Part shown: one piece after another, positions 6,001-15,139 of the stretch | Numbering within the stretch: position 1 is the first letter of the stretch | Layout: each line of letters begins with the position of its first letter | Assembly (NCBI GenBank): GCA_028286865.1 | Contig: JAQBQU010000008.1 | Location: forward strand, 1-48,775 | Length of the DNA: 48,775 nt | Direction: 5' to 3' | From: Candidatus Kaiserbacteria bacterium | GTDB lineage: Bacteria; Patescibacteriota; Minisyncoccia; Phycocordibacterales; UBA2100 | The notes under the pieces: model-generated | What the model was told of the DNA's origin: nothing | The model's database searches: none | Seen by the model: the letters and a program-made list of their open reading frames with translations, nothing else | Translations under genes and position numbers: made by a program

Positions 6001-6514
6001 TGCTGTTCGCGATCCCCTTGAAGGTGCCCGGGTTGATCATCGCAAAAGCAGTGACCGAGAAAAGGAGCGACGTCAGTATCACCGCCGGGAAGACCATGAT
6101 CGGACTCACTACTGCAGGCTGCTGCATGGCCCGCACTTTTTTCGCGACCGGAGTGCCAACGACCGGAGTCGCAGGGAACAAATTGTTCAGGTCGTGTACG
6201 ACCGGGACGGATGCAGAGAAGGCGACGTATGTACTGATAGGAGCAGCGGGTGCGCTCGATGCACGATTGCCCTGATATTCCTTGATCCGCTGATCGCGCA
6301 ATTCCTGGGCTTGTATCTTCTTCTCGCTCTCTCGCTTTGCGATATATGAGGTGAGCTTATCCGCCTCTACATACCATGTGTGCCCGATCAAACGACCGGG
6401 CACCTTCTCTTCGCGGCACAATCGCGAGATATAGTCGGACGATAATCCGAACAATGCACCCGCCTCCTTTGAGCCGACAAATCGCTTCCCCTCAATGAGA
6501 ATTTCGTTCGTCAT
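1..6514 (-). CDS. Giant repeat-rich surface/fibre-like membrane protein with N-terminal HTH domain (3' end outside window, >2170 aa)
   Basis: Translated by hand from ATG at 6514: MTNEILIEGKRFVGSKEAGALFGLSSDYISRLCREEKVPGRLIGHTWYVEADKL, then a TM segment (IMVFPAVILTSLLFSVTAFAMI), then T/S/G/A-rich repeats. The same frame still reads GTDYAPATSGSSILYGNGAGGFSSVSVTGPLSFST at base 2. The ORF track lists no stop-terminated ORF in this frame within 1-6514. Confidence 0.9.
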   Translation of the reverse strand, partial: MTNEILIEGKRFVGSKEAGALFGLSSDYISRLCREEKVPGRLIGHTWYVEADKLTSYIAKRESEKKIQAQELRDQRIKEYQGNRASSAPAAPISTYVAFSASVPVVHDLNNLFPATPVVGTPVAKKVRAMQQPAVVSPIMVFPAVILTSLLFSVTAFAMINPGTFKGIANSISTNAHHLFADVGSVVSAVRGGNGSSKNLAAASVAEASAATSTVLSDTASAALSSVQINDSAKLVIGNTLVSRPDFTSGVMEVGVPLSIKKTLSVDGAATFSDQLTAAGISAGAVRTTSLAVAGTARLAGSVFVAGPSVFDGSIAANGGITTSGADIDLQGGRIFASNVVNGIKAGSSNVTITGTASNPIISVTIPPASFGGGGGGGNGSVTSVSGTGGLTGSVTSSGSLSIDFSSANTWNALQVFAAGASSSSLTLDTALGIASGGTGTSTAPTYGQFLIGDGNGGYMFSPNFTIGLNGATTTNFAITSATSSLLRTDANGFVFAAVAGSDYLDATSLNTSAKLAAYLTDETGTPGSVVFSASPTFSGTANFVATHNTAELIVDSASTFTGGFAAGADSTVTGGFKVSGTATSSDLAIINVPGTILKTNALGQVVPAIPGVDYATGAVSSSDQNWMMRYGALTPTTTLGVLVSASSTFGNGTQNGGLTIYGGATTTGSSYIGGSLTLGTALAVISGGTGANNALNARQNLGLGSIATQAATSVAITGGSIYGVAATTTSLAITNATSSLLKTDAFGNVIPAVSGTDYVTGPLLLNFLALTDWYATTTDALHEGTNNLYFTNLRARNALSSAAAGLSYSTSTGAISLTAGYTIPLTASTTEWTSAYQNRISSVSGPLSFVNNNLAIDQASGSQGGYLSAGDWTTFNNKLSLNSLSATAPVLYNSTTGTFSIQQANGTQGGYLSAADWTTFGNKQDVLAFTYPLSVTGTTVSTAFSTTTNNTFAGTNTFNGATTLANATSTSFAITNLTNAILKANANGSVVAATPGTDYVAPSTLTSYLSLANWYATTTDALREGTANQYFTPARVRASLFAAGPLNFNSTTGTYSISQASSTNDGYLSSTDWTTFNNKLGANSISGTGVISYNSGTGVITTTGGTFGAGNYTFPAAVAGQSLSVAGTATTSGLAITGVAGTILKTNALGQVVPAVAGVDYVNSGALANNSTWSIVGGALAPTTTIGTIVSASSTFTSTLNANSLNLTNALAVGSGGTGVNSLTGLVKGNGASAFTAAVAGTDFQAPITASYPILFSGNNLSLAFGTTTANTWSQIQTFTSGFAVYASSTIGNGTQAGGLTVSGGATTTGKAIVQGAFAVTGATVLSNTLNTSGLSTLSGGFVSQASSSVIGGLTTVGTATSTNLAITGVTGTLLKTNALGQVVAAAASTDYAPVTTGSSILYGNGSGGFSSVSVSGPLSFSTGTLSINNAAADAATKGAATFATNDFNDNGSGVISIDYTAGQLATGAQNGFLSSSNWTTFNNKVSSTSLSATGPLSYNSATGVFTISQATTGTAGYLSFADFNTFNNKQSALSFAYPLVNTSGTISSAFGTTTNNTFSGANIFNGSTTLANATTTSFAITGTPSTLLKTDAAGNVVAAVPGTDYALGGSGVTSFNGRTGVVVPTGSDYTTSLVAEGSNLYFTTNRVAGVIAGTTTTALAEGSNLYFTNNRVASVIAGTTTDALAQGTVNKYYSTNLFAADLAGTTTSALREGSNQYFTNARVEAVINASTTIPKTTLANVWLPLQTFGSGFISQASSTVVGVFTASSFTGAGTGLTGTAASLSIGGNAGTATALQNARTINGTSFDGTSNIVITAASSTHLVDNNTFSGVNSFLGNTTLANATSTNFFATTASSTNLFAQAAAVGSLKLGGITNSYLATDAAGNVVATTSLSAAEIAGILGINQGGTATGTQVTNGVNYFDGTRITSGTALTFNGTLFKAPSLFATGSSTIGDGTQTGGLTVNGGATTTGNAYIGGTANLSSSGAVGFNGDIFVSRNGAGILQIGTTASNASGNLVVNGFTSQGNTQVNSNLLVGGASGAVLSGNSGNLGVGTTSPFAKLSVAGSAYIGGNLTATGTLAVAGQTTLSTASSTALTSTNLFSTLASSTNLTVSSIASGNLVKTTTGGSFIAAVSGTDYAPATSGSSILYGNGAGGFSSVSVTGPLSFST

Positions 6515-6882
6515 TTATGAAGTGAGTGGGGTCCAAAAAACGTATGAAGATTCGTTCATGCACGAAGTCGTATCAGCGAAATCGCTAGCGTTTGTTATGT
6601 TTTTCGTGCAAACGAACATATCAATAAGATATACATATTTTACTTCACGAAACGTACATGAAGATAAAATTTCCCCTCGTGTGGGGAGAACTATTGAAAA
6701 AAATTCCGCACGCGGAAAATATTTTATATGCACGAAAAAGCACTCGTTCTTCTAGCGGCAATTCACTACAGGGCATTTAAAACGCTCTCACGAGAACAAG
6801 TCCTGCGATCGCCCGAGGATCGCATCCACGAACATGCATTTTCTCACAGCACATCCGGATGTTGAGTTTTGGTACGGCATGT

Positions 6883-6943
6883 TCTCGGCATCCGAGATAT
6901 GCCTATAAAAGCTATATATTATGCGAATCTCGGATGCCCGAGA
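6883..6943. repeat. REP-like palindromic element, copy 1 (CTCGG..CCGAG family)
   Basis: 12-bp inverted repeat GGCATCCGAGAT (6887-6898) / ATCTCGGATGCC (6927-6938); each arm is itself part of a short palindrome; lies just downstream of the epsilon gene. Confidence 0.6.
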
Positions 6944-6952
6944 GTTGAGCTT

Positions 6953-7225
6953 TTAGGAGATGTCGGCGTAGATAGTGACGACGTCATCAAATAGGCGCAC
7001 AACGGCGGTGTCGTACGAAAGCGTTGATTCTTTTCCGGACACATCAACGACTACGATCGGTTTTTTCTCTACGAGTGAAATGAAGTGAGCGTGTTGCGGA
7101 AGGAGGTCGAAGGGACCCTGACTGTTCACAGATGAAACGGATTGCGCCTCCCCTTCCCACACGATCCCTTTGGGAGAAAGCACCTGTACGTGAAGCGTCG
7201 CCGATTCTGAAGTATCCGCGCTCAT
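6953..7225 (-). CDS. atpC: F1-ATPase epsilon-like subunit, N-terminal beta-sandwich only
   Basis: [20 protein letters not shown]...[15 protein letters not shown] matches the epsilon N-domain pattern; last gene of the operon with a 4-bp overlap with beta; 90 aa with no C-terminal helices. Confidence 0.85.
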
Positions 7226-14027: not shown

Positions 14028-14175
14028 AGTTAAAAGGACGACTTATCTATGATAATACTAGACATTCCGACTATTTGATGTGAGATCGCTAAAACATAAT
14101 GGGGATAACAGATAGAAAACTTTTCACAGAAAAAAATCTATAAAAAAGGATCACAACTTCCGGCCGGCACCGACC

Positions 14176-14207
14176 AAAAAAAGAAAAAAGCGGCTCATCG
14201 CCGCTTT
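14176..14207 (-). terminator. Intrinsic terminator after the tandem-HTH gene
   Basis: Stem AAAGCGGC/GCCGCTTT followed by a long T tract on the minus strand, about 18 nt after the stop at 14225. Confidence 0.75.
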
Positions 14208-14224
14208 CTCCCGGAACTTTGTGT

Positions 14225-15139
14225 TTATTTACGCACGTAGGTCATCTCAGGAGCGACCATATTCTCTAAAACATCACCCATTCTCCCGACCGCTGCCCCC
14301 GCGCTTGCCGTAAGTGCGTTCTTGGTCACCGAATTCATGCTCTTGGTAAAGTTGAACGTGTATGTGGACTGCTTCTTAAGCGTTACAAAGCCATACGAAA
14401 GCACGATAACGAACGTAAGCGCTACCCCCGCACCAATGGCTCTAGATATAGTGATATCGGACGTTTTAGCCTTTGGTGCCACGTAAGCGACCGGTCGCTG
14501 TGGTGTCATTGTCGTCAGGCGTGGAGCTGTGCGGACCACGCGTATCGGAATATTGTATTGCTCTCTGAGCTCGTCCTGGACGGGATCAGGCTTTCTATCC
14601 ATCTTCGGCATGAGTTCACGGGTATCGGCCGTGTAATTGAAAAGCGGTGATGATGGCATCGGCGATTCAGCCGGCTTCGGCAGCATAAGCCCTACGGCCT
14701 CCGACTGAACGGCCGCGAGCATCGAGTCCTTCTGAGACTTGTGAGCCAGAAGTCCCTCGCGTTCAATGTACCAGCGGTTGCCGATCTGACGCGAGAGGAT
14801 CTTACCGCCACGCGCGAGCTGCCCGATGTAATCCTGGTTATAAGAGGTTAATTTCGCTGCTCGGGATGCCGAGATGTAATCTTTGCCGTCAAAAGAGACG
14901 ATCGAGTCGATATCAGATGCCTGCTTCGGCGCAGGTACCATCGGTTTATACTGTTCCGCGTTCTTTTGGTATGCGTTCAATGAATCGAGCGATACATACC
15001 ATAGGCCGCCGACACGCTGCGCATCAATGAGCCCGCCGCGGGCGAGTTGCCCGATATAGTCCTGTGCGTAGCCTGTTGAGACGGCCGCCTGCTTGGAGGA
15101 CATGTAGTTCTTGCCTTCGAGAAAGAGCTCATCTGCCAT
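14225..15139 (-). CDS. Membrane protein with two tandem Xis/MerR-like HTH domains
   Basis: Two repeats of GKxY(M/I)SxxxAAxxTxYxQDYIGQLARGGxIxxxxxGxxWY, a Pro-rich linker and one TM (AIGAGVALTFVIVLSYGFV). Confidence 0.85.
   Translation of the reverse strand: MADELFLEGKNYMSSKQAAVSTGYAQDYIGQLARGGLIDAQRVGGLWYVSLDSLNAYQKNAEQYKPMVPAPKQASDIDSIVSFDGKDYISASRAAKLTSYNQDYIGQLARGGKILSRQIGNRWYIEREGLLAHKSQKDSMLAAVQSEAVGLMLPKPAESPMPSSPLFNYTADTRELMPKMDRKPDPVQDELREQYNIPIRVVRTAPRLTTMTPQRPVAYVAPKAKTSDITISRAIGAGVALTFVIVLSYGFVTLKKQSTYTFNFTKSMNSVTKNALTASAGAAVGRMGDVLENMVAPEMTYVRK

Follow-up and report, generated by a model that had tools for sequence, protein, structure and literature searches.

The locus analysed here lies on a contig of a Candidatus Kaiserbacteria bacterium (JAQBQU010000008.1; the whole contig C2, 48,775 nucleotides (nt) long, is the window of this study), in an assembly of 871,312 bases in 21 contigs that is approximately 90% complete, and it raises the question of what winged helix-turn-helix (HTH) domains do on membrane proteins. 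Four such domains of the excisionase/HTH_17 type, hereafter called heads, are found at the N-termini of three predicted membrane proteins: a small protein of 304 amino acids (aa) with two heads, a 554-aa protein that ends in a part resembling the c subunit of ATP synthases, and a giant fibre protein. The original prediction, made from the DNA alone, placed these proteins around an ATPase and proposed that the heads either tether the nucleoid to the envelope, the fibre and the motor, or act as a shared assembly tag that joins the three proteins. Here we favour, at roughly even chances, another reading, in which the heads, tethered to the membrane, would bind DNA sequence-specifically and regulate or tether the locus that encodes them. 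All genes of the locus are on the minus strand and are open reading frames (ORFs) as follows, with the ATPase genes assigned by Pfam and NCBIfam:

16960–19491, minus strand: secA
15217–16701, minus strand: gatB
14225–15139, minus strand: 304-aa two-headed small protein
12363–14027, minus strand: 554-aa protein (c fusion)
6953–12323, minus strand: F1-like ATPase genes, whole set
2–6514, minus strand: giant protein of more than 2171 aa, whose open frame runs off the contig

The Heads Are Winged Helices on Predicted Membrane Proteins

The heads, the helices that follow them and the predicted membrane anchors were placed by profile searches, hydropathy and AlphaFold2 (AF2) models, for which the predicted local distance difference test (pLDDT) is given:

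14990–15139, minus strand: first head of the 304-aa protein, residues 1–50 (HTH_17 at residues 12–59; AF2 pLDDT ~90, strand-strand-helix-helix-strand-strand-helix)
14762–14911, minus strand: second head of the 304-aa protein, residues 77–126 (second HTH_17 stretch; four-copy profile E 4.6e-32; AF2 pLDDT ~88–91)
14693–14761, minus strand: helix after the second head (AHK.EKD.LLAAVQ), residues 127–149 (AF2 helix 127–149)
14375–14443, minus strand: predicted membrane anchor of the 304-aa protein, residues ~233–255 (hydropathy; AF2 helix 228–258)
13878–14027, minus strand: head of the 554-aa protein, residues 1–50 (profile E 7.1e-35; AF2 pLDDT ~90; Foldseek matches Pukovnik Xis, BldC-DNA and RacA-DNA)
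13731–13877, minus strand: long helix of the 554-aa protein with L..R..EY, residues 51–99 (AF2, pLDDT ~90 up to residue 80)
13473–13535, minus strand: first predicted transmembrane segment of the 554-aa protein, residues ~165–185 (hydropathy; orthologous to the anchor of same-genus giants)
6365–6514, minus strand: head of the giant protein, residues 1–50 (profile E 5.4e-35)
6269–6364, minus strand: helix after the head of the giant protein, residues 51–82, ending ELRDQRIKEY (alignment of 15 heads)
6032–6103, minus strand: predicted membrane anchor of the giant protein, residues ~138–161 (hydropathy; three K/R before, one after)

All four peptides quoted in the original prediction are present in the translations (residues 8–49 of the giant and of the 554-aa protein, 8–49 and 84–125 of the 304-aa protein). 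The copies are 28–32% identical to the first copy and share eight invariant positions (G9, A18, D27, Y28, L32, R34, W47, and Y48). The Pfam model HTH_17 (PF12728) recognised two stretches of the 304-aa protein (35.3 bits, cut-off 27), on which the NCBIfam model TIGR01764 'excise' scored 27.4 against a cut-off of 28.8. No MerR-family model was reported among the Pfam or NCBIfam matches of the heads, nor any effector domain, and a sequence search of the PDB with the four-copy profile gave 0 matches at E ≤ 10. The AF2 models of the 304-aa and 554-aa proteins were confident for the heads (pLDDT ~90) and poor for the remainder, and the fold (strands 4–7 and 10–14, helices 15–22 and 26–34, strands 40–43 and 46–50) is that of a winged helix with a beta-hairpin wing. 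Every Foldseek neighbour of the HTH part at prob ≥ 0.9 is a DNA binder, namely TraN, Pukovnik Xis, RdfS, RacA-DNA, and BldC-DNA, with the Xis, RdfS, BldC, and RacA matches at prob 0.92–1.0. The Xis/BldC/MerR-type winged-HTH identity proposed for the heads is supported by the predicted fold and the structural neighbours.

Within the genome the heads are confined to this locus, as no others are scattered elsewhere. The four-copy profile found only those four (next match E 0.29), and PF12728 run over all six frames returned the same four together with one E 0.39 match that holds a stop codon. At E ≤ 0.001 the head profile matches 8310 protein clusters (50% identity). Among 53 aligned heads, all (100%) have a basic residue at position 34 (R34), 75% have one at position 41 and 55% at position 42, and the core of the recognition helix (D27, Y28, and L32) is kept at 94–98% across all head classes; therefore all heads should see the same ligand.

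A hydrophobic stretch follows every head by hydropathy, as had been proposed, and the heads begin at or near residue 1, or at residue 77, leaving no signal peptide ahead of those that start at residue 1. The natural prediction is that the heads are cytoplasmic and that DNA-binding domain and transmembrane segment are combined in one protein. The helix ending LxxQRxxEY that the giant and 554-aa proteins were said to share is present at residues 71–80 of both (ELRDQRIKEY and DLARQRANEY); among 15 aligned giant-type and fused heads L72, R76, and E79 are invariant and Y80 nearly so. The 304-aa protein does not have this helix and carries instead its own conserved one after the second head, in which H133, K134, K137, D138, L141, V144, and Q145 are invariant in 11 orthologues; a tail of ~50 aa follows its anchor. 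The best Foldseek match of the 304-aa model was TraN of pIP501 (prob 0.98, E 5.7e-3, large root-mean-square deviation (rmsd)).

A Candidate DNA Target Beside the Genes for the Heads

The gaps between the genes of the locus hold a recurrent half-site, TATCTCGG (on the other strand CCGAGATA), which in its palindromic form reads TCTCGG-N3-4-CCGAGA:

6883–6897, between the epsilon and giant genes: palindrome TCTCGG-N3-CCGAGA (genome pattern search)
6928–6943, between the epsilon and giant genes: palindrome TCTCGG-N4-CCGAGA (same composite in related loci)
16939–16953 and 16913–16920, secA/gatB gap: palindrome and half-site (equivalent position in related loci)
15203–15209, 15181–15188, and 15171–15176, gap between gatB and the 304-aa gene, minus-strand reading: half-sites CCGAGAA, TATCTCGG, and CCGAGC, which include a divergent pair

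Only nine intergenic copies of TATCTCGG exist in the genome, and four of these fall within the 770 intergenic bases of window positions 6500–17000, out of 82,234 intergenic bases in total; similarly, three of the genome's four TCTCGG-N2-8-CCGAGA palindromes lie inside the gaps of the locus. In 74 related loci collected by means of the 304-aa protein (470 kb in total) the 8-mer occurred 201 times, compared to 17 times for the reversed 8-mer used as control, with peaks in the secA/gatB gap, within the 100 nt before the small HTH gene (16 of the 74 loci) and in the gap between small HTH gene and fibre gene. The same was seen in 26 context loci from many families, where 18 copies were located in 12.3 kb upstream of the first heads (taken as the 300 nt before them) and 37 in the 386.9 kb elsewhere, whereas the reversed control gave 0 and 10, respectively.

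Across a sample of 401 genomes of the order, the exact palindrome was present in 62, of which 53 carry the head, compared to 168 of the 339 genomes without the palindrome. At least 23 genomes have a site no more than 2 kb from a listed head, commonly 65–100 nt upstream of the gene, and a few sites are inside the coding sequence directly after the head (e.g., in genome G027). The 4-nt spacers are self-complementary (CTAG, ATAT, and others) in 17 of the 49 listed, where 6% would be expected by chance, therefore pointing to a DNA dyad rather than an RNA loop. Loci of one family (f82) have two to three direct CCGAGATA repeats, 9–11 bp apart, in place of the palindrome. Xis and BldC bind DNA head-to-tail, and these direct repeats recall such binding. 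Xis-type excisionases and BldC (PDB 4j2n, 8dgl, and 6amk) share the same small winged-helix fold with the heads (TM-score (TMt) 0.54–0.73, rmsd 1.6–3.6) but are small soluble proteins, the excisionases partnering a recombinase, whereas the heads described here are membrane-anchored. Taken as sequence, the motif resembles a DNA site, dyad or direct repeat, that two heads would read, and the candidate operator half-site TATCTCGG, an element newly described here, is the likely target of the heads.

Several observations weigh against sequence-specific binding of the locus by the heads. Coding sequence accounts for two of the 8-mer peaks, located in gatB and in the 'YISA' codons of the heads; a reversed control pattern is found in ~45 of the 401 genomes, and single matches are often due to chance; most HTH-positive genomes have no exact palindrome close to an HTH gene; and since related genomes are not independent, the motif statistics overstate the case. 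The 554-aa gene is not preceded by a half-site, and a function as RNA hairpins, or as sites of a different protein, is conceivable for the palindromes. As to the heads themselves, those of the giant protein (15.8 bits, E 0.017) and of the 554-aa protein (13.9 bits, E 0.067) are under the Pfam cut-off, the copies being tied together by their 28–32% identity and eight invariant residues, and the wing of this genome's fused head is acidic (REESGW), in contrast to V/I-G in the family. In addition, every Foldseek E-value obtained with the 304-aa and 554-aa models exceeded 0.001, as expected for domains of 50 residues.

The Heads Belong to a Conserved Pair Beside secA-gatB

The head profile matches 221 of the 401 genomes, while the ATPase cassette, counted by full-length c-like proteins, is present in 16, with the genus member G003 as an additional carrier. 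Eight same-genus loci without the cassette have the gene order secA-gatB-[two-headed small protein]-[headed large protein], and in six such loci of other families a single-headed protein of 207–2600 aa comes after gatB; thus in all 14 cassette-less loci opened the HTH proteins adjoin gatB and the ATPase is absent. In seven genomes (G000, G003, G361, G102, G195, G266, and G388) the cassette follows the small HTH gene, and a headed giant then follows the cassette in all but G266, where the contig ends. A headed protein also comes after the cassette in G097, G223, G325, G105, G200, and G271. Overall, 12 of the 16 sampled cassette genomes have a head within ~8 kb on the same strand; the exceptions are G415 and G120, where contigs end, G079, with no head nearby, and G028, with only a weak HTH-like ORF (E 6e-4) 2.6 kb upstream. 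The claim that the heads are arranged around the ATPase is therefore true of most cassette genomes and not of the heads at large. Judged by gene order, the conserved unit across the order is secA-gatB-[small HTH-transmembrane protein]-[HTH-transmembrane giant], with a secondary link to the ATPase; the heads, on this evidence, belong first to the pair of small protein and fibre, and the ATPase with its special type of fibre is an optional insert there. Being syntenic beside secA-gatB across the order, the locus does not look mobile.

A Head Fused to a c-Like Subunit

The 554-aa protein joins a head to a homolog of a rotor-ring subunit. The following features complete its description:

14037–14068, minus strand: promoter-proximal element of the CTAGTA.AAT..TAGATAAGTCG type, 10–41 nt upstream of the 554-aa gene (nhmmer)
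12618–13091, minus strand: extracellular strand-rich domain of the c-like part, residues ~313–470 (conserved with stand-alone c-like proteins)
12369–12599, minus strand: c-subunit-like helical hairpin with GRNPRAKSS loop, residues 477–553 (BLASTP against the genome's own atpE; Foldseek)

Residues 1–200 (HTH, helix, and anchor) have their best matches in the N-termini of same-genus giant proteins. They are followed in the middle of the protein by a variable Ala/Ser/Pro-rich linker, and residues 313–554 are homologous to stand-alone proteins of ~275–330 aa that open the same cassette in other genomes and have a signal-like N-terminus only. The last 39 residues match the genome's own atpE (BLASTP E 1e-5, 36% identity, GRNP loop included), and the top Foldseek matches of the C-terminal hairpin are c-ring subunits (prob ~1.0, TMt 0.6–0.76, E 0.06–0.7), although this part of the model is of low confidence (pLDDT 50–68). 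The description of the protein as a c fusion is hence right as homology, yet Pfam ATP-synt_C (PF00137) gave no match at E ≤ 1 on the 554-aa protein, the sole match in the genome being on contig C13, and the ion-binding carboxylate is absent, with Leu aligned to the Glu of atpE FAEALA. The c-like proteins of G003 and G028 likewise have no Asp or Glu at the ion-binding position.

The fused architecture of ~550 aa is also present in G003 and, at 41–56% identity and at least 97% coverage, in 11 further protein clusters, whose heads retain Y28, R31, L32, W47, and Y48 as well as the L..R..EY helix; the genus member G361, on the other hand, has an unfused c-like gene of 318 aa. The element upstream of the 554-aa gene matches that of the fibre genes, indicating that the promoter was inherited with the fusion. 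It was the sole own-genome match by nhmmer (E 9.6e-5), and in 31 context loci the ten matches at E ≤ 0.01 were all upstream of giant-type or fused HTH genes, the one in L050 being ~500 nt from the called start; seven of the ten are training sequences, and the new ones (L050, L054, and L062) are all from the same genus. A fixed-length weight matrix missed copies with 1-nt indels, and nhmmer was used instead. The element holds a -10-like TA.AAT and recurs in relatives of at least three families. In this fusion the c-like first gene of the F1-like cassette acquired its promoter, HTH, helix, and anchor from a fibre gene, and selection has since kept the product. The fusion is real and maintained. 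A domain related to residues ~313–470 is found in many giants, 127 of the 401 genomes having some profile match, and in relatives it gives a borderline match to PF23982 'XM1 gp53 minor capsid protein' (26.9 bits, cut-off 27).

How the Heads May Act

If the heads bind DNA of their own locus, they would do so on the cytoplasmic face, held by a single-pass anchor, with TATCTCGG as the half-site bound. The 304-aa protein would offer two heads per chain, as an 'internal dimer' like TraN, while in giant-type and fused proteins the conserved long helix could pair two heads, as in MerR-type dimers. The targets would be non-coding DNA of the locus, i.e., the secA/gatB gap, the gap between gatB and the small HTH gene, and the region upstream of the fibre gene. 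Binding might amount to repression, activation or pinning, so that the membrane proteins would regulate the locus, hold it at the membrane, or both, in which case expression and insertion of the fibre, the ATPase cassette and the nearby secA would take place at a single site.

Transmembrane transcription regulators (TTRs) such as ToxR, TcpP, CadC, and VtrA/VtrB are surveyed in the main text of Demey et al. (2023; PMC10269533), in which a term search found no mention of HTH_17, excisionase or Patescibacteria. TTRs, like the proteins described here, combine a DNA-binding domain in the cytoplasm with a single membrane pass and a part outside the cell, and action from the membrane is proposed for both. 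They differ in their head, which is of OmpR type rather than of the HTH_17/excisionase type, and in carrying a known sensor domain outside, where the present proteins have a tail of 50 aa, a ring subunit of the c-like type or a fibre longer than 2000 aa. TraN of pIP501 (PDB 4pm3/4p0z), described in PMC6158623, is a repressor with tandem winged helices whose recognition helices enter adjacent major grooves. It thus resembles the 304-aa protein in having two excisionase/MerR-like winged helices in one chain, but it is cytosolic, has ~120 aa and binds an asymmetric site.

The main texts of the collection of papers searched contained no account of fibres with HTH heads, nor of an F1-like ATPase in Kaiserbacteria or Parcubacteria. 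To our knowledge, Patescibacteria, or candidate phyla radiation (CPR), have very few recognisable regulators, and we know of no account of how their host-contact surface structures are controlled. The present analysis provides a widespread family of heads, a conserved pair of a two-headed small protein and a headed giant fibre, and a candidate DNA target open to in vitro tests that need no culture of the organism. It further describes a putative DNA-binding head moved by gene fusion onto a rotor-ring homolog of an F1-like ATPase that travels with a special type of fibre. Should membrane-held heads indeed bind their own locus, a minimal cell would have a very simple means of linking a surface fibre to gene control or to local assembly.

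The alternative that the heads are a shared assembly tag, binding each other or a common cytoplasmic protein and thereby co-clustering the small protein, the c-like ring subunit and the fibre, appears unlikely to us. The cytoplasmic HTH of RodZ binds MreB and offers a parallel; a RodZ-like, protein-binding head was in fact our first guess, which lost ground after the DNA motif emerged. The same head with a near-identical recognition helix is indeed found on three membrane proteins of one locus, it was fused onto the ring subunit and retained, and the small HTH protein and the HTH fibre are adjacent in all eight same-genus loci lacking the cassette. However, no positive evidence emerged for contact or for this half of the original prediction; every close structural neighbour binds nucleic acid, and a tag would leave the conserved DNA motif beside the genes unexplained.

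An equally unlikely, though more far-reaching, possibility is a transertion hub, in which fibre, small partner and c-like ring subunit all grip the same motif and pin the cluster at the membrane site of assembly. Transertion by the type III secretion system 2 (T3SS2) of V. parahaemolyticus is the subject of PMC9977878. If a hub existed here, the locus would be pinned where the machine is transcribed, translated, exported (secA being adjacent) and assembled, and in the strongest form the ring of a rotary motor would be mechanically coupled to DNA.

A general, RacA-like nucleoid tether, with many sites and the chromosome held against envelope, fibre base and motor, is in our view improbable. Cells this small have DNA close to the membrane, and DNA is anchored to the envelope by RacA of Bacillus subtilis (PDB 5i44), which has sites spread around the origin. 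RacA resembles the heads in its winged HTH followed by a long helix, and RacA-DNA is among their structural neighbours (prob 0.93–0.96), but RacA is soluble and held at the pole by another protein, whereas the sites described here are concentrated in the locus itself: four of the nine intergenic half-sites of the ~90% complete genome are in one locus, and no genome-wide array was seen. The motif beside the HTH genes lends indirect support to the DNA binding that the original prediction assumed, while its conserved dyads and direct repeats argue for sequence-specific binding in the own locus and not for general tethering of the nucleoid.

It is very unlikely, for the 554-aa protein alone, that the head is a functionless leftover of the recombination that supplied promoter and signal-anchor to the c-like gene. 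Residues 1–200 and the upstream element do derive from a fibre gene, stand-alone c-like proteins elsewhere manage with their signal-like N-terminus, and this copy lacks K10, G23, and G44, which are typical of the family, and has E-E in place of V43-G44. This explanation is weakened by the 11 fused homologs, which down to 41% identity have kept the key residues of head and helix.

Least probable of all is that the heads bind RNA and read TCTCGG...CCGAGA hairpins in their own transcripts, controlling termination, stability or membrane targeting of the mRNA: two palindromes lie 10–70 nt after the epsilon stop codon and one 7–21 nt after that of secA, neighbouring half-sites could form longer alternative hairpins, and SelB winged helices with selenocysteine insertion sequence (SECIS) RNA are among the weak Foldseek matches (prob 0.2–0.35), but the stem sequence is fixed, with compensatory changes in 2 of the 50 two-mismatch variants of the non-coding zones, i.e., at chance level, self-complementary spacers and direct repeats fit DNA better, and no Rfam family came near its gathering score on window positions 6000–20000.

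The ATPase, the Fibre and Other Features of the Locus

The cassette of the window comprises the c-like, b, delta, alpha, gamma, beta, and epsilon genes and has no a subunit:

11538–12323, minus strand: b-like
11017–11535, minus strand: delta-like
9560–11020, minus strand: alpha
8712–9572, minus strand: gamma
7222–8715, minus strand: beta
6953–7225, minus strand: epsilon

Its alpha and beta subunits do not reach the NCBIfam cut-offs of the alternate F1Fo ATPase, of atpA/atpD or of either mycoplasma F1-like family, scoring 276, 353, 189.8, and 329 against mycoplasma cut-offs of 600, 850, 520, and 570, respectively. As a canonical F1Fo operon is present on contig C13 (35730–42800; a, c, b, delta, alpha, and gamma together, with beta ~1.8 kb beyond this group), the ATPase of the window is, on sequence grounds, a second, divergent F1-like set. 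The ~1.8 kb between canonical gamma and beta (C13 40387–42150) holds unrelated ORFs, one of them NUDIX-like by appearance. F1-like ATPases of mycoplasmas (gliding MMOB1660/1670; MSC_0618/0619; PMC8406192 and 10.1101/2024.06.11.597861) are likewise a second alpha/beta/gamma-type ATPase beside a true ATP synthase and tied to surface machinery; the cassette described here differs in retaining b-, delta-, epsilon-, and c-like genes and in being flanked by HTH-headed membrane proteins.

The giant protein has a membrane-proximal outside domain (residues 226–385; 5360–5839) with homologs at E ≤ 1e-4 in 11 fibres downstream of cassettes, while none was found in the giants of the 14 cassette-less loci, which suggests a type of fibre specific to the motor cassette.

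A G+C-rich hairpin with a T-run lies directly 3' of the 304-aa gene (14185–14215, minus strand), which suggests that the small HTH gene is transcribed separately from the ATPase operon. The 440-nt gap between the epsilon and giant genes contains two terminator-like hairpins with T-runs (6671–6717, minus strand), 3' of both palindromes and 5' of the start of the giant gene, and may thus hold the 3' end of the ATPase transcript or a leader with attenuators.

A further element, TTATCC[AC]CA, which occurs 81 nt upstream of the 554-aa gene, was considered as the operator and rejected as locus-specific, the genome having 23 copies:

14100–14108 and 19786–19794: TTATCC[AC]CA sites of the window (21 further copies in the genome)

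It is DnaA-box-like, being identical or close to the classical box, and 14 of its 23 copies are intergenic, with intergenic DNA making up ~9% of the genome. Several copies lie 60–140 nt upstream of starts, including those of a pilin-like gene, of the 554-aa gene and of a DnaA-like gene (at 98 nt, inside a called ORF), and the copy of secA is 303 nt upstream. TTATCC[AC]CA is also found upstream of fibre genes in relatives.

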